Shown here: positions 1,127 to 27,312 of the stretch, in pieces
Layout: each line of letters opens with the position of its first letter
Numbering within the stretch: the stretch's first letter is position 1
Notes under the pieces: generated by a model
Seen by the model: the letters and a program-made list of their open reading frames with translations, nothing else
Databases searched by the model: none
What the model was told of the DNA's origin: nothing
Assembly: GCA_011523055.1 (NCBI GenBank)
Contig: WTHQ01000019.1
Location: forward strand, 25,282 to 89,281
Length of the DNA stretch: 64,000 bases
Direction of reading: 5' to 3'
Source of the DNA: Methanobacteriota archaeon
GTDB taxonomy: Archaea; Thermoplasmatota; Poseidoniia; Poseidoniales; Thalassarchaeaceae
Position numbers and translations under genes: made by a program

Positions 1127-1127
1127 C

Positions 1128-2144: not shown

Positions 2145-2188
2145 TTGGAAGGGATCAATTTTTTGTCAAGTAAGACCTCTCGATAGCC

Positions 2189-2518
2189 ATGACCTCCACG
2201 GAGCTCGCTGTCAGCATTGACCCGGCTCCACCTGCTAGGGCGACCCCCTTAGGTATTTTGAGGGCTATTTGGAACGAATTGAGTGGGGGGGTGGGGCCTT
2301 GGGGCGCTCTTCGGCCAGCCTTCTCAATCCTCCTGTCGTTTGTGCCATTTTTATTCCTGGGGCAGCATTTCAACAGGCAACACAGGAAAGGAGCATGGTG
2401 GTTTGTACTACAACTCCCGCTCTTGTTGACAGTGGTTCTATGGCCGTTAATTTATGCTTGGTCAATCATTGACTCTTGGTGGGTTTCAAACGGCATTGTC
2501 TCCGATCGCCCAGGCTGA
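2189..2518 (+). CDS. hypothetical small membrane protein (109 aa)
   Basis: ORF fills the gap between two minus-strand genes. Two predicted hydrophobic helices (FSILLSFVPFLFLG, WWFVLQLPLLLTVVLWPLIYAW). Confidence 0.3.
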   Translation: MTSTELAVSIDPAPPARATPLGILRAIWNELSGGVGPWGALRPAFSILLSFVPFLFLGQHFNRQHRKGAWWFVLQLPLLLTVVLWPLIYAWSIIDSWWVSNGIVSDRPG

Positions 2519-2520
2519 GC

Positions 2521-9697: not shown

Positions 9698-12223
9698 CTA
9701 TCGCCCCATCAGTGCTCTATGCACTGAATTTTGGATTTCTTTCATCCGTTTGTGGGCCCCAATGTCCTTGAAAACTGACAAGGACCTTTGGAGGTAGGCT
9801 ACTCTCTCGGATCTGTCGCTTCCTATGGCCCCGAGGCGGGCGAGGATCTCTGCCTGTAGGAGCCTGAAGTCGTTCGCCTCGGCTATGGATAGTGCGTCTA
9901 GGTAATGCTCAGAGGCCTCACTGGTTCTACCGACATCAACAAGAACCTGGCCTAGAAGCATCTCTGTCTCCACCGCATTAGTTGGGTTTGCATCCTCAGA
10001 AAATGTTTCTAGTGCCGCATTGTAATGCAATAAAGACAGCTCCACGTCCTTGGACTTTGCATAGAACCTCCCCAGGATGGCCCTGGATCGGGCATGCAGT
10101 TGCTGTTTATCCAATTCCAACGTCAAATCGTGGGCGCTCATTGCATGTTTCCTCGCCTTCTCGGATTCTCCGATTTCTAGGAAGCCATCAGCCAGCCTTA
10201 GTTGTGCTGAGATCAATTCCCTTTGGTCCTCGACCTCTAGCATCTCCTCTACGTTTTGGTACACCTCCCTGGCTCTTCGATCGTCTCTCCTTTGTCTGAA
10301 AATGGCCCCCATGCTGATGTACGAGTCCGCAGCGCCCCTTGCATCCTTGGTCTTGATCTGGAGGCTGAGCGCCTGCCTCAGCGTTTCCAGCGCATCATCA
10401 AGAGCCCCACGCTTGACCTCAAGGTCTGCGCGTGTGGAAAGTATTCTCGACATCGACTTTGAGTCCTTGATTCGCCTTGTTATGGATGTGGCTGAGTCTA
10501 GCTCCTTCTCCGCTTCGTCCCAGTTGCCCTGTATCAGCAGAATCTCCCCTGACAGCTCATGTACCAATGCTTGGGTTTTAGCCTCAAGGGCATCACCTTC
10601 TATGCCTCTCAGAATGCCAAGCAATTCAGTGTGGCCACCTCGCACGAGATCCAGTCCGTGGCCCTCCAATACGTGAGCTAGGGCCTCGAGGTCCCCGGAC
10701 ATGCTGAGGTGGTGAAGGTGTTCTATCCTGTCCTCCGTAGTAACAGATTGTTTCCCGTACCATTCAGCTGCAGATTTGTGCAGGTCTCTTCGAATTTGCT
10801 CATCCATTGACCTTGATGAGAATTCTCTAACGAGGTCGTGAACGTCCAGTTCGTCTTGGTTTGCCCTCCGCGCAAGCCCACCCTCGATAAGGCTCTCAAT
10901 GGCATCTTGCGAGGTCGGCCTCGGGAGGGCTTCGGAGGGTATTGGCTCCCTGAAAACGCTAATTGCCCCTAGAATGTTCTTCTCTTCTGAGGTCAGTTTG
11001 CTGAAGATCTCCTTCTCGACGAAGGCTTCGAGAGTGGTGTGGACTGACCCTGTGAAGTTGCCCCTATTGATGAGTTCGAGTACTAGGGGGTGCCCCCTGG
11101 AGAGGGCGTATATGTGGGAGAATCCAGGGTCGTCGATGGTTGACATGGAGCTCAGTAGTTTCCTGCTGGCACTTCGATCCAGTCCCTCAAGCCTGAGGTA
11201 GGTTGAGACTGTTCGGCCCCTTGGGTCGAATTCCGGCAGCAGCCTCCTGAATGATCTGGTGAACAGCACCATTCCAGCCTCACCACACTCATCTATCCTT
11301 TCAGACACTGACACAAGGATTGTGACCAGGGCCTCGTCGCTTATTTTGTGGACGTCGTCAATCACAACGAGTGATGGATTCTTCCTCATCCCCTCGATGA
11401 TTATGTTGGAGCAAATCGAGGGGTTCGGAGTCTGGGCTCCTTCCAGATAGTCCGAGAGTTCCATTTGACCCATAAGGCCCAGCCACTCCCCCATCGCCTC
11501 CAGGAATGAGCGTGAGCCGTCCCTCTCCTGGCATCGGTGGAAAAGTAGGTTCCTACGGTGCGTGAAGCGTTCAATGACCTTTGCTGCAAGTGCGGTCTTA
11601 CCTATGCCCGCGATCCCTGGGACGACGATCGACGTTGAGGCTTCTTCCAGCAGGTTCGCGATTTTGTCTAGCTCAGCCTCCCTCCCAAAGAATTTCCTAA
11701 CACGGGGCAAGTCCGCCAAAGATGATGAGAATTGTCTTTCGATATGCTTTGTGAGGTCCCTCTCTATGAGTTCCGAGTTCAAGCTCGTTAGATCAATCGT
11801 AGCATCATCGTCCATGTACCTGAGTACGTCAACGTGTCGGAGATCTATGTCGGACTTAGACACCAGCTCAGATATCGATAGCTCCTGGATCATACCACCT
11901 GATTGGATGGTTTTCACCAATTTACCGGACACCGATTCCCAGACCTCGTCGGATAGTGAGACCCCCTCGTCTGTCAGAAAGTATGCTTTCCTCTTCCTGG
12001 TGACCCCTGTGATGTGAGCTTGTCTTTCGATGACATGGCCGGATTCCTTCAGTGAGCCTATCGCCCGTGGAACGTTTGATCTTGCAATCGAGACAGCGTT
12101 TGCAATTCCCATCTGTGATAGGGCGAAGGGAACCTCGACCCTATCGCGGTAGTCGGCGTAGTCCCTTAGGTGGAGGAGTATGCGGATTTGAACGCCAGGT
12201 CGTGATGTGTTGTGACGAGGCAT
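9698..12223 (-). CDS. STAND-type signal-transduction NTPase: N-terminal winged-helix DNA-binding domain, AAA/NB-ARC-like ATPase, C-terminal TPR array
   Basis: wHTH-like N-terminus (VQIRILLHLRDY...GIANAVSIARSNVPRAIGSLKESGHV). FFGREAELDKI followed by Walker A VVPGIAGIGKTALAAKV. Walker B-like LVVIDDVH. C-terminal ~350 aa of TPR-like helical repeats. Confidence 0.8.
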   Translation of the reverse strand: MPRHNTSRPGVQIRILLHLRDYADYRDRVEVPFALSQMGIANAVSIARSNVPRAIGSLKESGHVIERQAHITGVTRKRKAYFLTDEGVSLSDEVWESVSGKLVKTIQSGGMIQELSISELVSKSDIDLRHVDVLRYMDDDATIDLTSLNSELIERDLTKHIERQFSSSLADLPRVRKFFGREAELDKIANLLEEASTSIVVPGIAGIGKTALAAKVIERFTHRRNLLFHRCQERDGSRSFLEAMGEWLGLMGQMELSDYLEGAQTPNPSICSNIIIEGMRKNPSLVVIDDVHKISDEALVTILVSVSERIDECGEAGMVLFTRSFRRLLPEFDPRGRTVSTYLRLEGLDRSASRKLLSSMSTIDDPGFSHIYALSRGHPLVLELINRGNFTGSVHTTLEAFVEKEIFSKLTSEEKNILGAISVFREPIPSEALPRPTSQDAIESLIEGGLARRANQDELDVHDLVREFSSRSMDEQIRRDLHKSAAEWYGKQSVTTEDRIEHLHHLSMSGDLEALAHVLEGHGLDLVRGGHTELLGILRGIEGDALEAKTQALVHELSGEILLIQGNWDEAEKELDSATSITRRIKDSKSMSRILSTRADLEVKRGALDDALETLRQALSLQIKTKDARGAADSYISMGAIFRQRRDDRRAREVYQNVEEMLEVEDQRELISAQLRLADGFLEIGESEKARKHAMSAHDLTLELDKQQLHARSRAILGRFYAKSKDVELSLLHYNAALETFSEDANPTNAVETEMLLGQVLVDVGRTSEASEHYLDALSIAEANDFRLLQAEILARLGAIGSDRSERVAYLQRSLSVFKDIGAHKRMKEIQNSVHRALMGR

Positions 12224-12285
12224 GGAAGTAGGCTATACCCTTCTCAATGAAAAGGATTGTTTACACAAGATCATGATTGACGCCT

Positions 12286-15200
12286 TTAGGCTTGGTCCTC
12301 TGGGACCCATTCCCCTGCTTCGACGTCCCACAACCAACCAGGGTTCTCAGCATCCTTGATGAATCTCTGATCCTGTGAAGCTGTATGGTCATCAATCAAG
12401 TCGCCACCATCGAACTCAACGAATCTCGCTCCAAGCGCGCCGAGGGCCGCGAGCACCAGCAACAGTGCACCTATCAATCCCCATGGGAGGCTCCCATCAT
12501 CGTCGGATCCATCTGATATCTGTGCCCCTTCTATCGGGTCTCCAATGCCCATGGTGAATTGTGGGGTGACTGTCCCGACGATCCTGTTTGCCGGTATGAT
12601 GAGGTTCCAAGTGCTATCCTCCTTGACCACTGTTGAATTTGCAGGGTTGGTGTCGATGTAAGCCGTGACTGACCTACCAGGTATGCCAGTGCCCTGGAAT
12701 AGTATGCCCGTGTCGCCCGGCCCGAGAGTACTGGTTTCCGGCTCGTTGACTGAAAAGATAGTTGGGATTACAATGAAGTCAACGGGATCAGATTGGACCT
12801 TTGAACCAAACACGTCTTGTGCGATGAAGACAACGTTCTCCATGTTCCATTCCGACATGTCCGTTGTGTAGAAGGCCATCACGTCCGGATCATATGTAGC
12901 GATGCCACTTGAGTCGATCCTGATTCCAATGGCATGTTGATCATCGATGACTGCCATTATTATGTCCTGATCAGGGTCGGGATCTGAGAAGTGATTGGTC
13001 AGGTCGATGGTTATCGAAGTGCATCGGTCGAGCAGATCAAGGTTTTCGGCATCGCAATAGAGGGTGAATTCCTGCTGCCAGCCCTCGCTGTCGAAAATAG
13101 GACGGTTGTTTCCTCTGTTCGGGGGGTTGTCAGCAATGAACTCTATTTGGTCCCACTGCGAGTGACCAATTCCATCGAAGCTCCGTGCATGTATCGTGTA
13201 AGGTCGATCATGCTGTAGATTCCGGGAGTCCCATGATGTCGACCAATAATCTCCTTGGATTTCGGATCCTGTCAAGGTGATCGTGTCCACAACGATTCCG
13301 TCTATTGGGTCCCTGATTTCTATATCTATCCTGTTTACCTCTCCGTCAGGGTCCTGAGCGACTCCTGAAATCAGACTATTTTCTGATGCTGTTACGTATG
13401 AGCCATCAACTGGCTCCGATAGTTGCAATAGAGGTTTCCTGTTCTCATTATCGATTGTTAAAGTCAAAACCTGTGGATTGCACTCGTCAACGATGCCCAG
13501 ACAGAAGTCTGAGTCAGATGCCCAGATGGTAAAGGTGTAGTCATCTGAGGTTCTTGGCAGTGCTGCGTAACTCCATTCATACGTCCATGCGTTTCCAGTC
13601 CAAACAGCATCTGCGGGTGTGTCACTGTAGTACCCATCCCCCTCGATTATGAAATAGATGTCTTGAATATCGGAACCACAACTCAGAGGGCACCCATAGT
13701 CATCAGTTGCGATCCCTGAGAAGGTTATTTTTTTGTCTTCAATTCTGTGGGTTGTTGAGTCAGCTGGTTCTGAGACTGTTATCGATGGTGGTTGAGTGTT
13801 GAGTTTTACCGTCTTGGATACAATCTCGCTGTAATCGAGGCCGTCGAAGGACCGTATCTCGAACACATAGTCATCCTCCGGATACTCCGACATGTCCAAT
13901 GAGTATTCCCATGTCCTGAACGGATGATTTGTTCCAGTGACCTCTCCTGGCCCCATTCCAGACGTGTCAATGGCGGTGCCGGCATTCTCCCATGCCCCAG
14001 TAAATGGATCCTTCACCTCGACCCTGTGCACGTAACCCTTCTGTGCCCACCTAGACTCTTCCGCGGACGGGTAGACTCCGATCCACTCTCCGTCCCATGC
14101 TGTGCCTGTGATCGTGACTATTCTCTTGAAGGACGTGTCACTTGATTCATCCAGACTTATTGAGGGAGCGTCATTTTCCAGCGTCACCGTTCCCTCGTAG
14201 GTGGACTCTGGGAGAAGGAAGTCATACTGATAGTAACCTGACCCGAATTTGTACCCTGTTACGAAGTACTTTGACATCTCACGGCTACCAGTAGAGTAGT
14301 CACAGGAGTCATCCTGCGTGTCATAGAGGAGGTCGCCATCGTTGTCTATCCCATCCGAGCAAGAGTCCTCATACTCGTCATCTGCGAAGCCGTCTGGGTT
14401 GTCCCCTCCTTGCAGACCCCTGAAGTCGAGATGTGAGTTTGATGGTAGCGCGATCCATGGCGTCCTTCCGTCCTCGAGCGTCTCAAGGGAGTAGAGGTCA
14501 TTGCCCACTCCATCCTCGACTAGTATGTTCGCCCCAGGCACGGCCGTGCCATCTACTATGGCTTGGAACCTTACCATCTCCGCGCGCTTCACCTGTACAG
14601 AGTAGAATGTCGGCTGGGTCGCGATTTGAATCTTGGAGAGGTCCAAGTTCGCGACGTTGGAGAAAGTGAACACAGTGGAGTTGTTATCCATATTCAACGC
14701 CAATGGGAAGTCAAGGGGAGTGTAGTCGGGGCAGATAGCGCAGCTCGTTGTTTGATGAGGCACTATATTTGTGTCCCAGTCCCCATCCGGATTACCATCG
14801 TTGTCGTTGTCTACGACTCCCGGCCATGCTTCTTGATCGTCCCATGAGAGCTTGACCGGCACTTCCCCAGCAGGGGCGTCTGGAATTGTTTCCGATTGGA
14901 CCGTGACCGATGATTTCGTCACATTGTAGGTGCTAGTGACCCCGTTCCATAGATTCTCGGTGAAATATGCAAGTGTGCCATATTGTTGAGCTCCAGCGGC
15001 ACCCGTGTCAAAGTTCTGGAGGACAGCACCCTGAGAATTTAGGTTCCAGGTGTTCCTCTGGACATTGAGCAACGCCCCCGTTGCCCTGATTCCGTCGGCG
15101 GACCCGCTTGCGGTGAAGACGTTATCGACAAGTGTCGCACCTGCCCTGTGAACCATCACGACCGGACACGTAAACTCCCCGTCCCAGTGCGTATTGGACT

Positions 15201-16533
15201 GGCATGTGCCGGTCCCGAGGCTTGAGACCTGGTTGTTTGCGAAGTACAGCCTTCTGACATCGGGGTTATCGCCGACCCAATAGTCTCCGGCAATCACTGG
15301 CTCCCTTGCAGTGTCGCTGATCGTGTTGTTCTGTGCGTCTACGTCGAATGAGCCTATGAGCCAGAGCCCATTCCAACCACCAATCGGCCCGATGTCATTT
15401 CCGTGTATAGTCGCACGACTGGACTGGATGGCGATTCCCGAGCCACTCGCTGCCCCGCTGAGGTCATTTTCATGGATCTCGGCTAGAGATCCCGCATAGG
15501 CGGTTATCGGAGTGCCGTCTGCGGTTGTGATGACATTATTGGAAACGTTGGTCGGGTACTCATTCGAGCCGATGGTAATCATTCCGTTTATGTCCACGCC
15601 ATTGCAATTTACGTTGATTGTGGAATCCGTGACCTTACCGGCTGAGGACCTGTAGCTGAGCCCGAAATCTCCACTGATGACGTTTATGTTTCTGAAGTCT
15701 GCGAATGATTCTTCGACCCAAACCGCTGATCGGCCGTTATCCTGATTTCGACACCCTCTCTCAGTGGATATGAAATCGGAGTTCTCGAAGGTGATGGGGA
15801 TGCTTCCTGTGCCTCCCCCATAAATCTGGACAGCGTTCCCTGTGACTCCACTCTGCTCATCATTTCCAACTGTGTAGGTGCCACCAACGAATCTTGGTTG
15901 GGCGAGCTCCGTTGCTAGTACGCTTGAGGTGTTGGTGTCCGTGAACTGGAGCTCCACCAATTCAGGGGATGCCCCCTGGAGCACTAGGGCCCCATAACGG
16001 AATTGGTTCACCGTGGGAACTGGAAATGGGACGCCCCATGCCGACTCGATATCGAGGAACTGAAGTACAGTCTCAGACAGATCTATTGTACTGCGGATGA
16101 TTATGCCCTCGCCACATGAAGGGTCCTCGATACCAAGGGTGGATGTTCCATAGGACATACCATCGCAGTCCCCCTTGGCGGACGCGTTGGATGGATCTAG
16201 CCAGGTCATCGATATGCGACTGGAGGCAGAGGCGTCCTGGGAAGCCCCGCAAGATGCCGCGCCGACGCAGAGATTCCCACGGGCCTCCAATGAGGTTCCA
16301 TTGGAGAATGTGACTTCAGTGGATGGCTCGATTATCAATTTTGCACCAGGTGAGATGATTATGTCACCGCTGACGGTATGCGACCCAGACCATGTCTCTA
16401 TTGAGTTGATGTAGCCTGAGCTGGTTGTATTCTGGGCGGACACTGAGGAAGCGGGGCCTACCAATGCAGCCAATGTTGAAAGTAGTAGAATGGTCACCAG
16501 CGCTCTGCTCTTCAATCCGGCCAACTCGCCCAT
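12286..16533 (-). CDS. giant cell-surface protein (~1415 aa): right-handed parallel beta-helix region, acidic DNDGD-type calcium-binding motifs, multiple Ig-like domains, C-terminal TM anchor
   Basis: Start chosen at the internal Met MGELAGLKSRALVTILLLSTLAALVGPASSVSAQ (signal peptide); the annotated ORF extends to 16752. PbH1-like repeats (NNVITTADG...IHGNDIG...NNTISDT...). DNDNDGNPDGDWD and IDNDGDLLYD motifs. C-terminal LPWGLIGALLLVLAALGALGA helix. Confidence 0.85.
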   Translation of the reverse strand: MGELAGLKSRALVTILLLSTLAALVGPASSVSAQNTTSSGYINSIETWSGSHTVSGDIIISPGAKLIIEPSTEVTFSNGTSLEARGNLCVGAASCGASQDASASSRISMTWLDPSNASAKGDCDGMSYGTSTLGIEDPSCGEGIIIRSTIDLSETVLQFLDIESAWGVPFPVPTVNQFRYGALVLQGASPELVELQFTDTNTSSVLATELAQPRFVGGTYTVGNDEQSGVTGNAVQIYGGGTGSIPITFENSDFISTERGCRNQDNGRSAVWVEESFADFRNINVISGDFGLSYRSSAGKVTDSTINVNCNGVDINGMITIGSNEYPTNVSNNVITTADGTPITAYAGSLAEIHENDLSGAASGSGIAIQSSRATIHGNDIGPIGGWNGLWLIGSFDVDAQNNTISDTAREPVIAGDYWVGDNPDVRRLYFANNQVSSLGTGTCQSNTHWDGEFTCPVVMVHRAGATLVDNVFTASGSADGIRATGALLNVQRNTWNLNSQGAVLQNFDTGAAGAQQYGTLAYFTENLWNGVTSTYNVTKSSVTVQSETIPDAPAGEVPVKLSWDDQEAWPGVVDNDNDGNPDGDWDTNIVPHQTTSCAICPDYTPLDFPLALNMDNNSTVFTFSNVANLDLSKIQIATQPTFYSVQVKRAEMVRFQAIVDGTAVPGANILVEDGVGNDLYSLETLEDGRTPWIALPSNSHLDFRGLQGGDNPDGFADDEYEDSCSDGIDNDGDLLYDTQDDSCDYSTGSREMSKYFVTGYKFGSGYYQYDFLLPESTYEGTVTLENDAPSISLDESSDTSFKRIVTITGTAWDGEWIGVYPSAEESRWAQKGYVHRVEVKDPFTGAWENAGTAIDTSGMGPGEVTGTNHPFRTWEYSLDMSEYPEDDYVFEIRSFDGLDYSEIVSKTVKLNTQPPSITVSEPADSTTHRIEDKKITFSGIATDDYGCPLSCGSDIQDIYFIIEGDGYYSDTPADAVWTGNAWTYEWSYAALPRTSDDYTFTIWASDSDFCLGIVDECNPQVLTLTIDNENRKPLLQLSEPVDGSYVTASENSLISGVAQDPDGEVNRIDIEIRDPIDGIVVDTITLTGSEIQGDYWSTSWDSRNLQHDRPYTIHARSFDGIGHSQWDQIEFIADNPPNRGNNRPIFDSEGWQQEFTLYCDAENLDLLDRCTSITIDLTNHFSDPDPDQDIIMAVIDDQHAIGIRIDSSGIATYDPDVMAFYTTDMSEWNMENVVFIAQDVFGSKVQSDPVDFIVIPTIFSVNEPETSTLGPGDTGILFQGTGIPGRSVTAYIDTNPANSTVVKEDSTWNLIIPANRIVGTVTPQFTMGIGDPIEGAQISDGSDDDGSLPWGLIGALLLVLAALGALGARFVEFDGGDLIDDHTASQDQRFIKDAENPGWLWDVEAGEWVPEDQA

Positions 16534-16582
16534 GCTTGCACTCGGCGTGTCAACAGATATAACCCTAGGCGGGATATGGGAG

Positions 16583-17815: not shown

Positions 17816-17835
17816 TGCTACCCACCTACGCTCAG

Positions 17836-20800
17836 TCAGAAGGGCGCGTTGGGTTTCCTTCCGGGCCTTCTGGTCAATAGGATCAAGAGGCCCCCGAGAA
17901 TGACGATTAGCACGACCATCAAAACTTGGGTGGCATTTCCAGCCTCATCGACACTTGGAGACTGGAGGTTGTATTTCTTTGTGTAAGGGTCCTCAGAGGA
18001 CTCCTTCCCGTCAACCGATTCTATTGAGAAAACGATCCAAGCATCCCCTTGAGTGAGTGAGCTGAAGTTAAGGTCCAAGAATGCCGTGTCTTGGCCACCT
18101 GCAGGAATCGAGAGGACTGTACTAGCGTTGATGCCGGATAGCTCTGCTTGAGCGGAGGTCTTGTGGTCCGCCCTGACCACTACCTCTCCTGCTTCAACCA
18201 AACCATTGTTTTCTACTGTCAGCACCACAGTCTGAGTTGATCCATAGACAGGGTCCTTGCCCCCTCCCAACCATGAAACACTATCTCTATCGATCGATAT
18301 GACGGCAAACTGCGCGCTTACCTCAAGCACAACTGGTTGGTATTCAGTCTGATCGCCGCCGATGACGTACATGGTTAGCGAGAACGGCTCGTCTGTGGCA
18401 GCCTCTGGCGCACTCAGTACGACGGATACTGCTTGGCTTTCGAACGCCCCAACGGTGACCGACTGCACGCCGGTCCTCGTCCAACCTTCGGGCAAGGCAT
18501 CATCGTCAAATGAGATCGCGAACACCTCGTCCGAATTCCCATCGTTCTGGAACGTTAGCTGTAGGTTTTGCTGGGATCCCGGCCTGACGCCATACAACTC
18601 ATCGGGTTCCTCCGCTAGGCTCCAACCAGTAGTCTTTGGGACGTTGACCATTACCTCAACGTCCTCATTGACCCCATTGTCTGATGATATCTGAATGGCC
18701 ACTGCCCGTCCGTCGGGGAAGTGCCGTGCCACAGTGGAGTTCGGGGGCGTAATCTTGACACTGATGGTCTTCTGGTCGTCATCAATTGACATTAGTAGGG
18801 TCGTAGAATCGGTGTACTCCCCGGACCCGTTGTCAATTTGGATCGCCCATTCGGCTGAGTCGGTGCCTGGTACTGTGGCCCTTATGTTGAATTCATCTGA
18901 TGTCTCATGGCCCTCGTAGTCAATGACGACCTCGACGAATATTGGGTCGTAACCCCCCATACCATCGAGTTCTGCGACAAGTATTCCGGCTTCGTCGACG
19001 ATGGCGGATGTTGATGAGCCCACAGACGCCGATATGGCGCTATTTGAGATTCTATTGAACCTCAGGTCGATTGGTGCAGTCTCGAATGAGTCCGAAATGG
19101 TTGACGAGGGGATGCTGATGGACTGGCCTGCCTCGTATGCCATGGTCCTATCCTGCTGGTGGACCTCGAAATCCCCAGAGACGGTAACAGAACCCGATGG
19201 GAGTAGTACCCTGATTTCTCCGTTTGAGGGCACAGCCAGCCTCCATTCTACTGAGGGGCCTGACTCCATGAGAAGCGTTATCTCATCGGCTAGGATATCG
19301 GAGCCATCCAGGTCCATGTCGATTGAGGAGATGGAGTGGAGTCCGCCCTCGTAGTCGATCCATGAGCCATTCATCACGAGCCATCCCCCGGGCACGAGGT
19401 CAACGTCCGCTTGGCCCCCATCCACTAGATCTGCGAATATGGGGGCGAAGGCGACCAGGTTTCTGGATTCATCACGGATCTGTAGCACGTACCTGCCGGG
19501 CTCAAGATCAACGGACCATGTCCCGTCCCAATCCTGTCCCCCTCCCTTGTCAGCTGAGACTGATGGCATTGCGAATCCCTCTCTTGGGACCAATAGGATT
19601 TCAATATCGTCCGACCAGGCGGGATCCACTGATTCACCGAGGTATGTGATGCTGCCTCTGGCCGTGACCGTACCTGCTGTGAGTTCGACATCTAGGTCGA
19701 CTGGCGCGCTCTCGATGGAAGTGTTGGCTTCCATGGTCGCGAATCCGTCTTTTTCGACTGTTATAGAAAGGGTGACATTCGACCGCACCAACGTTGAGTA
19801 TGTTCCAGACTCATCAGTGGTGATTTCCACTGTGGACTGTCCGTCATCCACCAATATGGTAGCATTGGATACTCCCTCTGCGACATCTGCTTGGCCGTCC
19901 TTGTCGAAGTCCCAGAACACCTTCCCAGAGAGGGTGACCTCCCTCTGCGCTTGGAGTGTTACTTCCCTGAGCTGCCCTGCTTGAACCTGGTCAATGTGCG
20001 TCTCTTGAATGACTATCCTGACGCCACCGACCTCTTCGTCATGGCTTATGCTCCAGTTGCCTGGGACGACGTTTGCTGACGAGGAACCAGTTTCGTTCGT
20101 GATGGGCATCTTCACCGAACCCAGGCCATCCTGCGACTCGAGGAATAGTCTCTGGCCCGCAACAGGGCTGGAGGACTCAGTGTCGAGTATCGTTATGTTC
20201 AACGTGGCCATCTCTGTGAGTTCCAATGTCATTTCAGGGGACTCTGAGCCTGCGATTACCTCGACATGGGACCTGACTCCTAGCACAGTGTTGTCACCGG
20301 GCTCAAAGCCATCAATCTCAATTATTGTTTGCCCTGTTGGCAGCAGGGCGAGTATGTTGCCGTCTTCATTGGTCCTCAGCGTTGTCACTGTCACAGGATC
20401 CGTGTCAATGTTCCTGAATTTCACATCCAAATCAGGAACAGGGGCCAGGAGTTGGTCAAGGATGGTGACATTGACGACCCCCTCTGGATCAAACCCTATG
20501 TCTCTGGCAAGGGATGTTGGTTGGTAGGGAACCTGTAGATTGGTGTCACCAGTTAGGATCCTCGTGCCGAAGAGAGTCTCGTCCGGGTTAAGGATGGATG
20601 TCTCGATGACGTAGTTGCCCGGTTCCAGCTCTATGTTCGCGGATCCTGTCGTGGATGTTGTTAGGTTCCGCTCGATTCCATTTGGGTTGAGTGGGACGAT
20701 CCTGAAGTCCGCAACTACGCCACTGCCGTTCGTGAAATTGCCATCCCCTGAGGTGTCGATGAAAGCAAACAGGTCCAAGGTGCTGTTGACTGGTGTTATG

Positions 20801-23800
20801 GTTATCTCTATCGTTGTTCCTTGCTCCGTGGTGATCGGGTTGTGATCTAAATTGGAGTCCAACAAAGAGACGGTCCAATCTCCAACAGGGAGTGCTATCT
20901 CGAAGTTCCCAATTTCGTCGACTTCGGAGGTCCAGGTTACTGCAGAGGACTCGTTGGTCGCAATGACGGATAGCCTCTCCCACCCTAGGATCGAATCCTC
21001 GTAAAGGTAGGTTCCTCGGTTCACGGTAACTATTCCCTCATACACCACTCCTTTTCGAGTTACGAGGCTGATGGGTTGGTTCTCCTCAGAGGTGAAGACG
21101 ACTAGTCCATCCACCAGGTTGCCCAAGCCGACCGTCGATGTTACTGTGACGTTTTCGCCCACGGGCAATGTGAATTCGAAATTACCATCCTCATCTGCCA
21201 CGGTGGATATCTCGAAGCCATCCCATCTCGCTACGACTTCGGCGTACTGGACAAAGTCATCCGGCCCAGGTGGGGTGTCATCATCCGATGTGAGAACTGT
21301 GCCCAGGAGCTGGGAGCTTGTTCTGAATTGAACTGTTTTGTACATGTCCTGATCGAGGGCTATTCGCTCCCATACCTGGGTGTTGCCAAGGGTGTAGTTC
21401 AATAGGTATTCACCGGGTAGTAGCTCTGCTTTGTAGGTCTCAGAATCTTGGTCATAAGCCATGTCAAAGACCTCATTGTTTGAAGAGTGCTGTATCTGCA
21501 AGTCGAGACCTCTGACCAAATCTCCAGTTTCAGATTGCAACGAGATTTCAAGATCGGCTGTGACAGGTACTATCAGATCGAGGGAGATGGCTCCTGACTC
21601 GGCGTCCTCTGGCGATAGCTCCGCCACGACATCGAAGAATCCATCGGAGTCGGAGTCGTATGATATCGTGTGTGGTCTTGCCGGGATCGGTCTAATTTCG
21701 ATGGTCCCACCCTCGCTGATGTCTATGGTGCAGGGCGACGATATTTTCAGGGCACAATCACCAGGTTCGTTCTGGCTCTGTAGGTCTGTATCAGTGAGTA
21801 CCACGCTCCCTGTGGCGGGAGTGCCATCTTCTTGCAGAAGGGTGGCGGTTACAGAGAGGCCGTCCACCTGGATGAGTCGGGTTTCCGTGGCAGGGGTCCT
21901 CAGGATGGAGAACTTCTCGGAAACTTCGACCTCCTGGCCGGTGTCCATTACAACGCTTACGCTGTATTCACCAGGGATGGCGTCTGATAAGTGGAAGGTG
22001 CCCTCACGTACCATCTGACCACTGAACACTCCGTCCCCTTGGAAGACACCGTTACCGGAAATTTTTCCAGAGGCCCCGTCCTGAACTACGAATCTACCAG
22101 CTGCTGTAAATGAGGCGTTGTCATAATGGCGAATGAACTCAGACTGACCGTTGGAGACGAATCTTCCCGTTGCATTCACTGACCCGGAGACCAGTATGTC
22201 GCCACTTTGGGTCAGACAGGTCTCAGAGCCGACAGGCATGGTGTCGTTGTCGCCACAGGTAGTCGGTTCGGATCCCTCGGAAAGGGCTCCGTTCAGGATA
22301 CCGTTCCCGTTGAAGGTTCCAGTACCAGAAACTGACTGGTTATTCCTTATCGTTTGGCTCAGTGTTCCTGTGAAGCCCTCTGCCCGTGCTGGGCTCGAGG
22401 AGTCGAACTGCCCGATCCCATCGAACACTGCACTGCCCTCTCCTGCGAAGTAGAGGCCCTCGCCCTCGATCGACCCGGATGATGTCGATATTGAGTAACC
22501 GGGGTGGGAAGCAGAGGGGTCGGCTGGCGTGAGGACGACCGTGGCGTTCTTTATCGGGTCGCCTGCAAAGGAAGGGTCTCCTGCCCACTGGACCTGCCCT
22601 GTGGAGGTGACGGCGGGTACGCTAACATCAACTGCCAGGGTCGCCTCTCCGTTGCTGTGCCCCTCCTCTCCGTCAACCATGATAACCTGAGAGCCCAGGT
22701 ATGTGGTTCCTGCAACCCCGCCCAGTATTGCGGTGATTGGGTTGATGGTTCGGTCCTCGCCGTCGACTTGCTCTCGGGTGATATCGGAAAGCATGTCGAA
22801 GGCGCCCGACTCTATCTGGGCCCTTGCATCGGTTTCGTCTACTGATCCGTAGAAAGCGCTAACCCTTATCTTCCCAGATGGTATGGTCGAGGTGAATTGG
22901 CCTAGGTCATTGGCCGTCTCGGATCCGATGGGTATCCAGTAGGTCCTGGGGTCGGTGTCCATTCCTTCCTCTGAGCTGAATGCGTCCCTCTCAATCAGAA
23001 TTTTCGCATTTGGCACCGGCTCCCCTGTTTCTAGAGTCACCGTGCCGGTTAGCGTGGCACCGCTGTAATACTTGAGTATCTTGACATTGGAGTTCGCATT
23101 TCCGATCGCGTTGTAGTACTGGCTGGGGTCGACACGTGGGTCACTCCAGTTGTAAATGTCAGGTGTGCCGTCGGCATCCGAGTCCAAGTAGTCAGAACCA
23201 TCGTCGTGGTAGTTCGCCAACACGAAGTGGTTCATCATGGCCCCCGGCAGGGCGTAAGCGTTCCTGAGGGGGGTGTCGGGGGTTCCTGATCTTGACCATG
23301 TAGGTCCGGGTTGCCCAGTATTACCAGGGTCGAGACCCAAAGAGGTAGTTCCATAGCCTACGTAAATTTTCGAGAGGAATGTCTCGAAGAACTCTGGCTG
23401 TTGGATGTAGTCAATGTCCTCAAGTGCGATTATCTGACTCTGGTCTGTTATTGCTCCAGACTGTTGTCGGACGATGTCATCAAGGTACTCCTGCTCATAC
23501 TCACCCGCCGTACGGGGGATAATCGGGCCGTCGCCCCTTCGAGTGAGGTAGCTGCTCGAGATGTAGTCTTCTGGATCCAGTCCCGCTAGGGTAGTGGGGG
23601 CATAGAAAATACCCGTGGTTTGGCCTCCGTGGTAATTGTAACCATCGTAGAAAAGACCACCGAGTGGGTATAGTCTGTCATCAATGGCGAAATATCTCAC
23701 GTCGGTGCTTCTCTGGGTGGTCTCCCCTATTCTACCCTCAAAGGTCTGTACTTCATGCTCTACCTCACTTAGGTCCGAAACTAGTCCTACTATCTGGTCT

Positions 23801-26800
23801 AGGTTGAGTGTATGGGTGATGAATGCTCTGCCAACCGCCAGTTTCGCGTTGTTCCTGTGGATTCCGGTTGACAGGTCGTTGTAGTCCTCAATCAGGTCAG
23901 AAGTGTACCTGTAGTCGCCAATAATGTAGTGAGTTGGGCTGGGGGAGAAGTAACTGGATGAGGACCTAGTTGTGTTGAAGAGACGCATGGCTTCGTTTGG
24001 GTCGTCCATGCGCTCACCGACTATCTCTCCGTCCTCGAGCACGTACCAACCAGACTTGGAGGGCAGACCGGTAGTTGACAAGAATGACCCACTTAGTAGT
24101 TGGACACCACCATCCTCGTGTATGAGTGCGAGCGAACGTGCCTCCACGTCTTCTACCGACATGCTGTGTATTCTCTCTAGTTCCCTGATTTGATTATCCT
24201 GGAAATAATGGCCTAGTGCCTCCCGATTGTCTTCATCTGTGACTCCACCCATTCTGAGGGCGTTCATTACCAGCAGGGCGAGGACGTCCTCCTGGCCTGA
24301 GCTGAGTAGGATGTTCCCCGAGATTGGTATTCCAGATTGGAAATTGTCTGCGACCGTGGGGTGCTGTCCGTGGGAAAGCGCTTGGAACCCATAGTCCCAC
24401 CAAGATAGGAAGGCAGGGCGTTCTGTGAAGGCGGTTTCTGAGTCCTGTTCGGATAGCCACTCATAGGCCATGTTCCAGCCCCCTCCATTGAAGCCTGGCC
24501 CAAAGGTACCTAGGTACCAACAGCCACTCGTGCAACGCTCGTCCGGCGAGTATTGGTTGGAGTTGAGGACGGAGAAACCTAGAACCTCGTACCGCAGCAC
24601 ATCCGGCATTATCCCCTGGATGGTCTCATCAACGTCACCAGCAGAAGAGTCACCACGGGGTATCCCTGAATCTATGCCGTAGGTGGCGTGTTGGGAGAAA
24701 ACGATGAGCAGGACCATCAGCGCAGCTGGTACGCCTGGCCTTGATCGGCTAGCGGAGAAAGTGCTGTTGAACCGTGCCCTTGGAGATCCGATGCCTGTTT
24801 TCTTCCAGTGTTTGACAAATTCTGCTGGGTTGGCGTAAGCCCACATGGCAGTGAGACCTATGCCGCCTACGACTGCCATCGGGGGCCCTGCGTTGAATAT
24901 GAACCTACCAGCGGTCCAGGACATATAGGACGCGACAACTATCCATGTTCCTAGAGTGAATGATGCTGTGTCCTCGTTCCTTCCACCCCTCCACATCAGC
25001 ATAACCCCATAGCCAATCGCGGCGATGGTCACGATTGGGCCGAATGAGGCGAACAGGATGCCCCTGTCTGGAGCCTGTGCCTCTCCAATGGTTGAGAAGA
25101 CCTTGTTCTTCGAGAAGTAGAAGCCACCAGTGGTTAGGATGTCCCAACCGGCGTACCACCCAAGGGCCTGCAAGGCGTAGAGGACTCCCAACACGGTTAG
25201 CGTGAGCGTGGCAGTGGTTGTGAAGACCATGAGCCATGGTTTGTCCCTAGACGCGGAAATAACGTAACCAAGGCCGAGTGTGAACCCTAGCATGTAGATC
25301 ATGGGGGCCATGCCGCTTGGGTTTGTCAGCAGGTTCATCCCTGGCCAGATGTAGAATGGGAGCGGGATTATGATCGCGGCAGCAAGCATCTGTAGCATCG
25401 CGGATGTGATGGGAAGCGTGTCCCTCCCCCTAAACAGATTAAGGAATACTATGCCCGAGTACCCCAGGAAGAGGATTCCTGGCGCGTAGACGAATCCCTT
25501 CCAAGCAAGCCCAGCGGTTGCGAATGAGATTCCTGAGAGGGTCGCGTAGACCATGGTGGTCCTCTGCGAGTGCCACATGAACCTGATTCCCGCGAGGATG
25601 TACAAAGGGTTCCAAGAGGTTCTAGAGAATAGACGATCCTGCCTCATGCCCATCATGGACCTGACCCACCAGTAGAATCCCAGTGTGAGGAAGAACATGG
25701 CGAATGAATCGTGGTCTGCCAACCCGAAGGTCGAGTGAGTGATGTGGCCCGGCATGAATGCTATCAACCAAGCAGATGCGATGCCTGCCAGAGGGGAGTG
25801 GAACCTTCTGGCCATCGCCGCCACGGGGAGCACTATTAGCGCGCCCCAGATTGCAGGCTGGGCTTCCACTGACCACCAAACTGCTTCCGAGAGAGACATG
25901 TCCGCCACCCACGACAGAAATATTCCTCCGAGGGCGAGTGACCATGAGAAGAGGGGCGGCCGGGGGTTGAGCCCCCCCACAGGGTAATTGCGGTCTGCGT
26001 CAAACACAAGGTGGGCCCTCTCATAGGCGACGTAATCGATGATTCGCTTCATGTACCATGGATCAGATCCCCCAGACATGTCCCACTCCCCGATAATCGA
26101 GGCGTTCATGGCAGGAATTACGTTCCACACGACTCGGACGATGAAACCTACTACGAGGGCCATGCCGACCAGGATGGCGTAGTTGTGATTTTGCCACCAC
26201 CTTCTGAGATGTGAAGGTTCCCTGAGGGGGGCCATAGCACCTAGATGTCCCCTTGAGGCCAGAACAATGATGCCGACATTCGACCAGAAGGTAATGAGCA
26301 ACCAAAGGATCATCGGATAAGAGCCGTCGTCTGTCAGAGCAGCAGGGAAACCGGATACTCCGACGTCACTCAATCTCCCAAGAGTGTAAATTACCCAATT
26401 CAGAGATGCCACGGATGCTAGGACATTCCATCTTTCTGCTTTGAATAGGCAGACGACCATGACCACAGCAGCGGAGAAAAGGCCCCAGAAGGGCCCGAGA
26501 AAGGCGCCATTGTCGTAGACCGATGGATCATCTATGGTAGCCAGCCAGACCATGGGAACCAGGAGTGAGGTCATAATCGCACCGGCAGCGAGATGGATGG
26601 ATTTGTTCTTGATGTCGAACGGCAGCTCCGAGAGCATGCCCGACCTGCTATTTCTGTCAAGGGTCTTGGACAGCATCAACGAGACGTAGAGGGCGCCCAT
26701 TACCATAACGGAGGCCATTGAAGAGAACCTAGCGCCCAGATAGGCGCGGGCGGCATCGGTCTGTGAGCCGTCCGGAATCTCTGAATTCAGCGCGTATATC

Positions 26801-27210
26801 ACAGCGAAGTAAATTCCGATGATGCTTCCGACGAGGAAATTCGCCTCAATCGGCCTGCCCTTCGAAGTCAGGACATGTGTCCCCATGGAAGTGAGGAGGA
26901 ATGTTATGCATAGCGCTGCAGGGGCGACAAGGGAGGCTCCAAGAGAGGTAGCTATGAGAATGGTAGGGGCTATCCAATCGTCGAGTTTCGTCACAGAGGG
27001 GTGCTCCGAGCTAATCCTCCCGAAAGCCGCGCCAGTGGCAGCCACGGCTGGAAGAGCGAGGAGGGCTATTTCGTCCGTCCATCCATTCAGTCCCGAGACC
27101 TGTGCAGTGATCAAGAACACAAAAAAGGCGGCTGCCAACAGGATTGGGCCGCCAAGTATGCCTTTCATCGAGGCTGCATCGGTGTTGCCGTTTTTGTCTA
27201 TCATTTTCAT
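17836..27210 (-). CDS. aglB: giant (3124 aa) membrane protein: extra N-terminal polytopic domain + AglB/STT3 oligosaccharyltransferase core + ~2000-aa Ig-like/beta-sandwich ectodomain + C-terminal TM anchor
   Basis: STT3 signature WWDYGFQ (codons at 24388-24402). EL1-type motif GSDPWYMKRIIDYVAYERAHLVFDADRNYP. TIxE-like TIGEAQAPD. More than 20 predicted TM helices in the first ~850 aa. Long ectodomain of repeated ~100-aa beta-sandwich units. Ends ...QVLMVVLIVILGGLLILLTRRPGRKPNAPF. Confidence 0.8.
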   Translation of the reverse strand: MKMIDKNGNTDAASMKGILGGPILLAAAFFVFLITAQVSGLNGWTDEIALLALPAVAATGAAFGRISSEHPSVTKLDDWIAPTILIATSLGASLVAPAALCITFLLTSMGTHVLTSKGRPIEANFLVGSIIGIYFAVIYALNSEIPDGSQTDAARAYLGARFSSMASVMVMGALYVSLMLSKTLDRNSRSGMLSELPFDIKNKSIHLAAGAIMTSLLVPMVWLATIDDPSVYDNGAFLGPFWGLFSAAVVMVVCLFKAERWNVLASVASLNWVIYTLGRLSDVGVSGFPAALTDDGSYPMILWLLITFWSNVGIIVLASRGHLGAMAPLREPSHLRRWWQNHNYAILVGMALVVGFIVRVVWNVIPAMNASIIGEWDMSGGSDPWYMKRIIDYVAYERAHLVFDADRNYPVGGLNPRPPLFSWSLALGGIFLSWVADMSLSEAVWWSVEAQPAIWGALIVLPVAAMARRFHSPLAGIASAWLIAFMPGHITHSTFGLADHDSFAMFFLTLGFYWWVRSMMGMRQDRLFSRTSWNPLYILAGIRFMWHSQRTTMVYATLSGISFATAGLAWKGFVYAPGILFLGYSGIVFLNLFRGRDTLPITSAMLQMLAAAIIIPLPFYIWPGMNLLTNPSGMAPMIYMLGFTLGLGYVISASRDKPWLMVFTTTATLTLTVLGVLYALQALGWYAGWDILTTGGFYFSKNKVFSTIGEAQAPDRGILFASFGPIVTIAAIGYGVMLMWRGGRNEDTASFTLGTWIVVASYMSWTAGRFIFNAGPPMAVVGGIGLTAMWAYANPAEFVKHWKKTGIGSPRARFNSTFSASRSRPGVPAALMVLLIVFSQHATYGIDSGIPRGDSSAGDVDETIQGIMPDVLRYEVLGFSVLNSNQYSPDERCTSGCWYLGTFGPGFNGGGWNMAYEWLSEQDSETAFTERPAFLSWWDYGFQALSHGQHPTVADNFQSGIPISGNILLSSGQEDVLALLVMNALRMGGVTDEDNREALGHYFQDNQIRELERIHSMSVEDVEARSLALIHEDGGVQLLSGSFLSTTGLPSKSGWYVLEDGEIVGERMDDPNEAMRLFNTTRSSSSYFSPSPTHYIIGDYRYTSDLIEDYNDLSTGIHRNNAKLAVGRAFITHTLNLDQIVGLVSDLSEVEHEVQTFEGRIGETTQRSTDVRYFAIDDRLYPLGGLFYDGYNYHGGQTTGIFYAPTTLAGLDPEDYISSSYLTRRGDGPIIPRTAGEYEQEYLDDIVRQQSGAITDQSQIIALEDIDYIQQPEFFETFLSKIYVGYGTTSLGLDPGNTGQPGPTWSRSGTPDTPLRNAYALPGAMMNHFVLANYHDDGSDYLDSDADGTPDIYNWSDPRVDPSQYYNAIGNANSNVKILKYYSGATLTGTVTLETGEPVPNAKILIERDAFSSEEGMDTDPRTYWIPIGSETANDLGQFTSTIPSGKIRVSAFYGSVDETDARAQIESGAFDMLSDITREQVDGEDRTINPITAILGGVAGTTYLGSQVIMVDGEEGHSNGEATLAVDVSVPAVTSTGQVQWAGDPSFAGDPIKNATVVLTPADPSASHPGYSISTSSGSIEGEGLYFAGEGSAVFDGIGQFDSSSPARAEGFTGTLSQTIRNNQSVSGTGTFNGNGILNGALSEGSEPTTCGDNDTMPVGSETCLTQSGDILVSGSVNATGRFVSNGQSEFIRHYDNASFTAAGRFVVQDGASGKISGNGVFQGDGVFSGQMVREGTFHLSDAIPGEYSVSVVMDTGQEVEVSEKFSILRTPATETRLIQVDGLSVTATLLQEDGTPATGSVVLTDTDLQSQNEPGDCALKISSPCTIDISEGGTIEIRPIPARPHTISYDSDSDGFFDVVAELSPEDAESGAISLDLIVPVTADLEISLQSETGDLVRGLDLQIQHSSNNEVFDMAYDQDSETYKAELLPGEYLLNYTLGNTQVWERIALDQDMYKTVQFRTSSQLLGTVLTSDDDTPPGPDDFVQYAEVVARWDGFEISTVADEDGNFEFTLPVGENVTVTSTVGLGNLVDGLVVFTSEENQPISLVTRKGVVYEGIVTVNRGTYLYEDSILGWERLSVIATNESSAVTWTSEVDEIGNFEIALPVGDWTVSLLDSNLDHNPITTEQGTTIEITITPVNSTLDLFAFIDTSGDGNFTNGSGVVADFRIVPLNPNGIERNLTTSTTGSANIELEPGNYVIETSILNPDETLFGTRILTGDTNLQVPYQPTSLARDIGFDPEGVVNVTILDQLLAPVPDLDVKFRNIDTDPVTVTTLRTNEDGNILALLPTGQTIIEIDGFEPGDNTVLGVRSHVEVIAGSESPEMTLELTEMATLNITILDTESSSPVAGQRLFLESQDGLGSVKMPITNETGSSSANVVPGNWSISHDEEVGGVRIVIQETHIDQVQAGQLREVTLQAQREVTLSGKVFWDFDKDGQADVAEGVSNATILVDDGQSTVEITTDESGTYSTLVRSNVTLSITVEKDGFATMEANTSIESAPVDLDVELTAGTVTARGSITYLGESVDPAWSDDIEILLVPREGFAMPSVSADKGGGQDWDGTWSVDLEPGRYVLQIRDESRNLVAFAPIFADLVDGGQADVDLVPGGWLVMNGSWIDYEGGLHSISSIDMDLDGSDILADEITLLMESGPSVEWRLAVPSNGEIRVLLPSGSVTVSGDFEVHQQDRTMAYEAGQSISIPSSTISDSFETAPIDLRFNRISNSAISASVGSSTSAIVDEAGILVAELDGMGGYDPIFVEVVIDYEGHETSDEFNIRATVPGTDSAEWAIQIDNGSGEYTDSTTLLMSIDDDQKTISVKITPPNSTVARHFPDGRAVAIQISSDNGVNEDVEVMVNVPKTTGWSLAEEPDELYGVRPGSQQNLQLTFQNDGNSDEVFAISFDDDALPEGWTRTGVQSVTVGAFESQAVSVVLSAPEAATDEPFSLTMYVIGGDQTEYQPVVLEVSAQFAVISIDRDSVSWLGGGKDPVYGSTQTVVLTVENNGLVEAGEVVVRADHKTSAQAELSGINASTVLSIPAGGQDTAFLDLNFSSLTQGDAWIVFSIESVDGKESSEDPYTKKYNLQSPSVDEAGNATQVLMVVLIVILGGLLILLTRRPGRKPNAPF

Positions 27211-27312
27211 TCACCCAGTACAGCCGAGGCTGTCCAGCATCGCGGCCACCTTGCCTCTCCATTTAAGCGGGACGGTCACATTGTCAACAGGGAAGTGGCG
27301 ATGACATCCCGA

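Follow-up and report, generated by a model that had tools for sequence, protein, structure and literature searches.

The best described relative of the enzyme examined in this work is the oligosaccharyltransferase (OST) AglB-L of Archaeoglobus fulgidus (structures 3waj, 5gmy, and 7e9s), which combines a GT-C core, acidic motifs in the first external loops, a WWDYG motif, and an external C-terminal domain. The same elements are found in an AglB encoded in the 64,000-nucleotide stretch of contig WTHQ01000019.1 analyzed here (hereafter the window), but this protein, from the order Poseidoniales, has three to four times the length of the solved chains (about 790–870 aa). It carries in addition about 10 N-terminal transmembrane (TM) helices, some 2,100 residues outside the cell, and another membrane anchor at the C-terminus. 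Poseidoniales are the Marine Group II archaea, which have been described as more abundant than any other planktonic archaea in the surface ocean and of which no representative has been cultured (Rinke et al., 2019, PMC6461757). Of relevance here, only thrombospondin genes, which are widespread, are mentioned in that work, and none of the papers found by our literature searches described the cell envelope of these microbes. Full-text searches did not return a description of the giant AglB or of the gene cluster around it, and a review of archaeal N-glycosylation (PMC11407970) makes no mention of widespread very large AglB fusions in Thermoplasmata.

The remaining parts of the locus also have described counterparts. 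The long extracellular stalk of AglB resembles the eukaryotic nodal modulator NOMO, a rod of the endoplasmic reticulum in which a string of CarboxypepD_reg-type domains likewise ends in one TM helix; this is a resemblance only, consisting of sub-threshold matches (NOMO_5th here, NOMO1-like_2nd in relatives), and, unlike in NOMO, the array is fused here to the OST itself. The AglB gene is followed by those of an S8 subtilase, a large beta-helix protein (hereafter BH), and a STAND regulator. Mycosins, the proteases of type VII secretion, are like the window subtilase propeptide-less S8 enzymes with an Asp/His/Ser triad that are tethered to the membrane beside a large envelope machine. Mycosins are anchored C-terminally, whereas the window enzyme has an N-terminal anchor and a conserved 45-aa cytoplasmic segment and, unlike at mycosin loci, no secretion-system genes are found near it. 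The regulator shares with PH0952 of Pyrococcus horikoshii and with MalT a P-loop NOD followed by a TPR sensor (the TPR_MalT and MalT models match weakly), but MalT has a C-terminal LuxR-type helix-turn-helix (HTH), and the window protein has instead an N-terminal winged-helix-like region of about 170 aa.

With a probability of roughly 60%, we consider these genes to be a conserved AglB neighborhood of Marine Group II, with a general OST, separate transcription units, and products at the envelope. The genes concerned, together with the two housekeeping genes upstream, are the following:

17836–27210, minus strand: AglB, STT3-family N-oligosaccharyltransferase, 3124 aa, about 24 predicted TM helices
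16583–17815, minus strand: S8 subtilase, membrane-anchored, 410 aa from a GTG start
12286–16533, minus strand: BH, beta-helix protein, 1415 aa from the ATG at 16533
9698–12223, minus strand: STAND transcription regulator, 841 aa
27313–28611, minus strand: purD, housekeeping gene upstream of AglB (Pfam)
28616–29293, minus strand: carS, housekeeping gene upstream of AglB (Pfam)

Gene order across the Poseidoniales

A previous sequence-only reading of the window had described four head-to-tail genes on the minus strand separated by short gaps, with carS and purD upstream on the same strand; the four open reading frames (ORFs) were found exactly where it had placed them, and the two housekeeping genes were located there by Pfam. 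The spacers measure 20 nt (AglB–S8), 49 nt (S8–BH), and 62 nt (BH–STAND), and neither Rfam nor tRNA scans found RNA genes inside the region. For BH the mechanical ORF is 1488 aa long and starts at a TTG (16752), but the 1415-aa product from the ATG at 16533, already chosen by that reading, is to be preferred because it matches the lengths of the orthologs (1414–1425 aa) and opens with a signal peptide. The GTG start of S8 is supported by the strong conservation of residues 6–45 in 77 orthologs. Four co-directional genes with short gaps are nothing unusual in a prokaryote, and what exceeds chance is that the arrangement has been conserved, not that the genes are co-directional.

We scanned one genome per GTDB species, anchoring the search on BH, which gave 141 relatives, 80 loci being examined by tblastn; ten metagenomic loci were also compared, L001–L006 (AglB 38–66% identical) and the divergent L091–L094. 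The order purD–AglB–S8–BH–STAND is identical in every related locus with enough contig (80 species representatives and 10 metagenomic loci), with AglB identities going down to 30% and GC contents from 35 to 67%. Conserved synteny, which the sequence-only reading had proposed as a check of its grouping, thus holds for AglB–S8–BH–STAND without exception, also in lineages with rearranged flanks. In the 80 loci examined from the GTDB scan, contig permitting, the fixed order and orientation include two further genes downstream of the four, one with a metallo-beta-lactamase (MBL) fold and one encoding a giant TSP3-repeat protein. The complete block, as seen in L001–L006, consists of a gene for a beta-helix protein of 540–575 aa (opposite strand), carS, purD, AglB, S8 (403–415 aa), BH (1414–1424 aa), STAND (841–849 aa), the MBL-fold gene (opposite strand), and the TSP3 giant (about 1900 aa).

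The flanks of this block are less stable. The divergent loci L091, L093, and L094 (AglB 30–34%, BH 34–44%, and STAND 49–51% identical; GC 44–67%) keep carS–purD–AglB–S8–BH–STAND, with the MBL-fold and TSP3 genes swapped for two other genes downstream. On the other side, carS is inverted in L091, different upstream genes are found in L092 and L093, and L003–L005 carry different genes upstream of the small beta-helix gene (570 aa in the window). The contig of L092 stops within BH, and its order is visible only as far as that gene. purD adjoins AglB in all 10 loci that reach purD, and carS stands next to purD in nine of 10; in L092 carS was not called as an ORF, but tblastn places it on the opposite strand. 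Since the flanks have been rearranged on both sides while the order inside is intact, the cluster together with purD is more stable than its surroundings. The published metagenome-assembled genome (MAG) SIMO Bin 19-2 (genus O1) shows the same cluster order, its eggNOG seeds being carS 1285, purD 1284, AglB 1283, S8 1281, and STAND 1279 in a reference with MG2_ locus tags, and the window is collinear with genes 297–314 of this MAG from about 1 to 36 kb.

The host lineage of the cluster is Marine Group II, and carS by itself already identifies the organism as archaeal. The relatives of AglB form more than 120 clusters at 3124–3338 aa, named, where a name is given, Candidatus Thalassarchaeaceae, Poseidoniales, or marine group II/III, and clustering puts the clade of the window apart from 66 loci that include all the named Thalassarchaeaceae. 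Across the order, identities are 48–58% for S8, BH, and STAND, 55–58% for purD, and 45–56% for carS; judging from such conservation, S8, BH, and STAND behave as core genes under strong constraint, not as variable surface genes. Protein lengths are also nearly fixed at 30–50% sequence identity (AglB 3124–3338 aa, S8 403–419, BH 1414–1457, and STAND 838–849), varying by about 6% at most. Such constancy is uncommon among large, repeat-like surface proteins and points to a defined architecture.

An exhaustive, profile-free search with AglB residues 1–1100 gave two tiers of relatives. The first contains about 12 clusters (at 50% identity) of proteins that are 39–51% identical, 3146–3228 aa long, and whose alignments begin close to the N-terminus. 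Relatives of the second tier are 28–37% identical and align only from query residue 330–380 or so, many of them being 2000–2775 aa long. These giant AglBs of other Thermoplasmata have the same OST core and CarboxypepD_reg/NOMO-like array as the Poseidoniales type but, unlike it, lack the extension of 10 TM helices and the S8/BH/STAND neighbors, as observed for AglBs of 2300–2767 aa. At the three second-tier loci that we examined (one named Thermoplasmata archaeon), the OST was fused to CarboxypepD_reg arrays in all and the trio was absent from all. Their AglB neighbors include Endo_dU, PTH2, and Cdc6 downstream in L088, DUF362 in L090, and a beta-helix/CARDB protein in L087; this last one, downstream of a non-Marine Group II AglB, was considered as a BH homolog and rejected, being not homologous. 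Giant AglB fusions are therefore widespread in Thermoplasmata, and it is the extra N-terminal domain and the trio that co-occur and are specific to Poseidoniales. In L088 (1–17350, non-Marine Group II Thermoplasmata), an 8356-aa ORF and the gene of a 1077-aa Ig/PKD protein stand before the 2449-aa AglB; giant AglBs are found among giant surface genes elsewhere too.

The enzyme and its three neighbors

The AglB of the window can be divided into the following parts:

26176–27210, minus strand: N-terminal extension, aa 1–345, about 10 extra TM helices, Poseidoniales type only
24211–26175, minus strand: STT3 catalytic core, aa 346–1000, with D404xD406, D499-H-D501, and WWDYG
24388–24402, minus strand: WWDYG, residues 937–941, within the catalytic core
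17956–24210, minus strand: extracellular extension, aa 1001–3085, sequon-rich array of CarboxypepD_reg/transthyretin-like beta-sandwiches
17839–17931, minus strand: C-terminal TM anchor (TM 3094–3112) and cytoplasmic tail TRRxGRxPxAPF-COOH

By its core, motifs, and fold the enzyme is a member of the AglB/STT3 family (GT66). Pfam STT3 matches at 54.8 bits (cut-off 24.5), and D404xD406, D499-H-D501, and W937WDYG941 are invariant in 31 orthologs. In the PDB, the core matches STT3A/B and the AglB C-terminal domain by sequence, and the top Foldseek matches are A. fulgidus AglB (7e9s, E 4e-9; 5gmy and 3wak, about 4–7e-9), with STT3A/B also found. The AlphaFold2 (AF2) model of residues 1–1100 (pLDDT 71) resembles A. 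fulgidus AglB and eukaryotic STT3. As to the DK or MI motif, which shapes the Ser/Thr pocket in the external domain of such enzymes, no conserved DxxK was seen; about 70 residues past WWDYG, a helix carries a conserved QxxExxxI (Q1007 and E1010 invariant, I1014 nearly so). One family model could be discarded, the archaeosortase-A-associated AglB of NCBIfam (TIGR04154), which reached 129.8 bits against a cut-off of 450; the C-termini here consist of a TM helix and a basic tail, without a PGF-type motif.

The N-terminal extension is predicted by AF2 as ten TM helices (aa 1–345, pLDDT 87, pTM 0.83) and has no Pfam match and no convincing structural neighbor. As the added helices are even in number, the canonical topology is kept and residues from about 940 to 3090 lie outside the cell; with the second anchor at the C-terminus, this ectodomain is therefore tethered at both ends. 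The ectodomain matches CarboxypepD_reg (E = 9e-22 in the whole protein, 1e-23 within aa 1001–3085) and, more weakly, CarbopepD_reg_2, NPCBM_assoc, and NOMO_5th, and BLASTP of AglB against itself revealed no internal sequence repeats. In the tail, the terminal A-P-F and the basic residues are near-invariant (31–41 orthologs). In the examined part of the annotation table of SIMO Bin 19-2, the giant AglB is the sole COG1287/K07151 gene; being seemingly the only OST, it cannot be dedicated, which suggests that it is the general OST of the lineage and does not serve BH in particular. The dedicated glycosylation system suggested by the sequence-only reading is thus not supported, as AglB looks general and is probably the only OST.

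The protease is an S8 subtilase (Pfam Peptidase_S8, E 1.3e-39, 136.7 bits against a cut-off of 21.8) with a conserved cytoplasmic N-terminal segment, a TM helix (58–76), an extracellular catalytic domain, and no propeptide. Its DTGID, HGT, and GTS blocks are conserved, like residues 6–45, in at least 95% of the 77 orthologs, and the alignment with its closest solved relative, Tk-SP (3afg, 4e-28), locates the catalytic Ser. Although the best NCBIfam model is mycosin (1e-29), the enzyme is not a mycosin, since that identity (TIGR03921) has a cut-off of 278.75 bits and only 103.8 were reached.

BH consists of a signal peptide, a beta-helix region, acidic Cys-rich and Ig-like regions, and a C-terminal TM helix (1349–1367) followed by a 48-aa tail with a conserved cytoplasmic PGWLWD..EW. 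Searches of the PDB by sequence and by profile gave no usable solved relative. In the window copy, Pfam Beta_helix (PF13229) reaches 23.5 bits against a cut-off of 25.9 and Big_7 has an E of 0.0017, also below its cut-off, but orthologs in L003–L005, L091, and L093 match Beta_helix at E 1e-5 or better. Together with the winged HTH (wHTH) of STAND, these are the sub-threshold cases among the domain calls of the sequence-only reading, which were right overall. Enrichment in N-glycosylation sequons (N-x-S/T) of both large proteins was another check proposed there, and it was found for the AglB stalk, with 26 sequons in the window copy (15.4 expected); AglB orthologs contain a mean of 42.8 sequons against 24.2 for the reversed motif. 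BH is not enriched (10 in the window copy, 13.4 expected), yet its sequons keep their positions: 11 of about 13 are conserved in at least 80% of 78 orthologs that are about 50% identical, compared to 1 of 13 for the reversed motif, 2 of 10.8 for N-x-A/G, and 7 of 24.8 for D-x-S/T. N35, N78, N116, N201, N402, N537, N617/618, and N1299 are among the conserved sites. Because of this positional conservation, which is its one line of support, BH is very likely an N-glycoprotein. Such glycosylation fits any archaeal surface protein served by a general OST and does not point to a dedicated pathway.

The regulator is a STAND-TPR protein like PH0952, its closest solved relative (6mfv, 1e-29 over residues 172–480), with an N-terminal winged-helix-like region, a P-loop NOD, and a TPR sensor. 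The Pfam matches are AAA_16 (37.0 bits, cut-off 32.6), NB-ARC (29.4, cut-off 23.5), and TPR_12 (68.4, cut-off 30.1), and the putative wHTH matches HTH_Crp_2 at 20.8 bits, below the cut-off of 27. In 74 orthologs the Walker A motif GIAGIGKT is invariant and residues 9–90 are near-invariant. It is not MalT, the equivalog model (NF003420) being rejected at 41.9 bits against a cut-off of 537 and the C-terminal HTH being absent.

Spacers, promoter-like elements, and expression

Four intergenic features of the window are relevant for transcription:

27211–27312, minus strand: purD–AglB spacer with TATA-like TTAAAT (27261–27266), leader (27221–27250), and Shine-Dalgarno (SD) site GGGTGA; candidate AglB promoter
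17816–17835, minus strand: AglB–S8 spacer with SD-like AGGTGG, no room for a separate promoter
16534–16582, minus strand: S8–BH spacer with TATA-like CCTAGGGTTATAT at 16557–16569, about 27 nt before the BH start, and two ATATC (GATAY) sites
12239–12255, minus strand: near-palindromic AT-rich element CCTTTTCATTGAGAAGG between BH and STAND, at the conserved A-a-a-.-T-t-t-T position

Over 69–78 genomes, in which the genes never overlap, the median gap is 42 nt for AglB–S8 (13–85 in 68 of 69 genomes, with an outlier of 998), 84 nt for S8–BH (usually 48–117, no outlier), and 58 nt for BH–STAND (usually 49–105, 70 of 77 genomes falling within 49–70, with an outlier of 219); in divergent lineages the S8–BH gap widens to 147–410 nt. 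Right-aligned upstream profiles (75–77 distinct sequences) show a G-rich site at −11 to −8 as the sole conserved feature before S8 (77 sequences), the consensus cCc.t...tTaAattc at −37 to −22 before BH (75 sequences), and the AT-rich element A-a-a-.-T-t-t-T at −34 to −27 before STAND. The promoter-like elements of BH and STAND lie 24–37 nt before the start codon. The one upstream of STAND may be a promoter or an operator; we also considered it as a generic promoter word of the genome, which was rejected as strict pattern searches gave no enrichment in the window.

The purD–AglB spacer is the likely AglB promoter, and its elements are conserved in L001–L005, L093, and L094, with a related form in L091 (CATAAAAAG and GGTGGCGCAGATGCTCCAGCC). 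The AglB leader GGTGGCCGCGATGCTGGACAGCCTCGGCTG (27221–27250), with a small hairpin right before the SD, is kept across very divergent Poseidoniales; it has no Rfam match and may be a regulatory 5′ untranslated region. Another hairpin, CGAGCC-TAC-GGCTCG, often with a T-run, is found directly 3′ of the S8 stop in many loci (for example, L016, L018, L021, L026, and L031) and looks like a terminator or an RNA-processing site; it is missing from the 49-nt gap of the window itself. The S8–BH gap of the window and of loci L007–L094 is also three-fold enriched in GATAY/RTATC 5-mers (99 versus 33 ± 6 in shuffles, a figure inflated by shared ancestry), which are depleted in the other two gaps. L091 has five copies, L093 seven (in a locus of 67% GC), and L094 four, and these repeats may form an operator array before the BH promoter.

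Because there is only an SD-like site before S8, conserved TATA-like elements before AglB, BH, and STAND, and hairpins after S8, we infer three transcription units (AglB with S8, BH, and STAND) as the most economical reading. S8 would probably be co-transcribed with AglB, and the cluster as a whole is probably not one operon. Of the operon envisaged by the sequence-only reading, then, the short co-directional gaps remain, and the conserved promoter-like elements before BH and STAND and the hairpins after S8 speak against it.

Published expression data are available for SIMO Bin 19-2 as normalized coverage in samples FN66 and FN71 (Damashek et al., 2021, PMC9723583). In this order, the values are 0.35/0.38 for AglB, 0.18/0.16 for S8, 0.16/0.18 for BH, and 0.19/0.18 for STAND, compared to 0.45/0.19 for carS, 0/0.08 for purD, 0.01/0.05 for the MBL-fold gene, and 0.10/0.07 for the TSP3 giant. 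All four genes are thus transcribed in situ. In the differential expression of the same study, log2 values are +2.05 for AglB (adjusted p 0.06), +1.91 for BH (not significant), and −0.05 for STAND, and the expression of STAND does not follow that of AglB and BH. For co-expression, another check proposed in the sequence-only reading, these sparse data go both ways: coverage of S8, BH, and STAND is similar in the two samples, and STAND stays flat as AglB and BH rise.

Surrounding genes and competing explanations

Several other genes of the window deserve mention. A TSP3-repeat protein (3002–8746, minus strand, 1914 aa), with a signal peptide and no C-terminal anchor, and a beta-helix protein (29339–31051, plus strand, 570 aa), with a signal peptide and a C-terminal TM helix, bracket the cluster, and both are syntenic in Thalassarchaeaceae-type loci. 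In L091, L093, and L094, a weak homolog (23–27% identity) of the 570-aa gene is still found upstream, and the TSP3 giant is replaced. The MBL-fold gene (8849–9697, plus strand) converges on STAND without any spacer; its orthologs have weak Pfam matches to Anti-Pycsar Apyc1-like proteins, and in the published data its transcription is low, while the divergent loci lack it. Further away, a 907-aa protein (33655–36378, plus strand) matches the CD36 family (Pfam 3.8e-10) and has a conserved counterpart at this position in both L006 and SIMO Bin 19-2 (gene 297), and a fusion of Peptidase_C15 (pyroglutamyl peptidase) and NUDIX (1128–2144, minus strand) is found as the same fusion in SIMO Bin 19-2 (gene 314).

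Under the reading that we prefer, AglB would be expressed from its own promoter, transcribed together with the propeptide-less, N-terminally anchored S8, and would glycosylate the exported envelope proteins at large, BH and the AglB stalk among them. BH, a membrane-anchored envelope protein that is very likely N-glycosylated, would have a separate promoter of the leaderless type, S8 would act on the same cell surface, and STAND, from a third promoter, would be a cytoplasmic ligand-sensing transcription factor. The products would act together at the envelope. Several observations weigh against such a picture. purD, which has no link with the envelope, adjoins AglB as invariably as S8, BH, and STAND do, and therefore synteny by itself is no proof of shared function. 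Past the TSP3 giant, a small gene is likewise retained in at least 64 loci, so that some of the conservation may reflect no more than a collinear stretch of core genome. In the AglB model the catalytic loops are of low confidence, the sequon density of BH in the window is not above expectation, and strict forms of the promoter-like motifs show no enrichment in the rest of the window; promoters and terminators were called from motifs in a lineage with no established archaeal promoter consensus. Finally, expression was available for a single MAG in a small number of samples, with a differential test that covers AglB, BH, and STAND and in which only AglB comes near significance.

One could go further in this direction and regard the four genes simply as functionally unrelated neighbors frozen in a slowly rearranging core segment, where only the general role of AglB applies and adjacency has no mechanistic meaning. 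purD and carS are equally linked, the collinearity with genes 297–314 of SIMO Bin 19-2 extends over about 1–36 kb, the window otherwise contains housekeeping genes (ArgRS, aRF1, LysRS, and carbamoyl-phosphate synthase), and each gene except S8 seemingly has its own promoter. However, synteny breaks upstream of the 570-aa gene (L003–L005), downstream of STAND (L091, L093, and L094), and by inversion at carS (L091), and never inside; envelope proteins held by a membrane anchor, each having a conserved segment on the cytoplasmic side, make up three of the four products, and S8 follows AglB by 13–85 nt with only an SD-like site. We take this explanation as unlikely, although it retains some weight. 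The opposite extreme would be a single dedicated operon, making, glycosylating, and proteolytically maturing one giant surface structure (BH and/or the AglB stalk) under direct control of STAND. It would agree with the short co-directional gaps in about 70–78 genomes, the survival of the order through flank rearrangements, the strict co-occurrence of the N-extended AglB with the trio, the conserved BH sequons, the similar coverage of S8, BH, and STAND, and GATAY repeats that could serve the neighboring regulator as an operator before BH. Against it stand the promoter-like elements before BH and STAND and the terminator-like hairpins after S8, the gaps of up to 147–410 nt in divergent lineages, the flat STAND while AglB and BH rise, an AglB that is apparently the only OST and hence not dedicated, and the lack of evidence for any cleavage event, and we regard it as rather improbable. 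The link originally proposed among the four genes is supported on its evolutionary and envelope-related side, and not for the single operon, the dedicated OST, a proteolytic maturation of BH by S8, or a control of the cluster by STAND.

A more speculative idea, and a doubtful one even beside the operon just discussed, is that the AglB stalk, S8, and BH might form one surface assembly, a cell-coat scaffold with a built-in OST, whose tails would be read by the TPR of STAND, the regulator acting on the GATAY array before the BH promoter. Each membrane protein does have a short conserved cytoplasmic segment (RRxGRxPxAPF-COOH in AglB, residues 6–45 in S8, and PGWLWD..EW in BH), and these segments, the near-invariant wHTH-like region, and the GATAY array motivate the model and are no test of it. 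Defense would be yet another role, with an Avs-like STAND NTPase with a TPR sensor and a protease guarding the cell surface against viruses. STAND-TPR and subtilase architectures do occur in defense systems, and there are weak PADLOC matches, but these are to generic models only (TPR 1.9e-6 and subtilase 5e-22), the N-terminal effector resembles a DNA-binding-type winged helix and not a nuclease or a protease, and the genes have a fixed core position in every genome with a conservation like that of purD, unlike variable defense islands. The anti-phage reading was rejected on account of the generic matches and the fixed core-genome position, and we give it hardly any credence.

Returning to the conserved AglB neighborhood with a general OST and separate units, its parts are ordinary; AglB stands out by its size and architecture, and the linkage by its strictness. 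What is apparently the only N-glycosylating enzyme of this lineage is three to four times the usual size and is clustered with a protease, a glycoprotein with fixed sites, and a sensor-regulator. As a set of concrete, conserved targets, the cluster could help to show, by metaproteomics, glycoproteomics, cryo-tomography, and heterologous expression, how the surface of these archaea is built and monitored.

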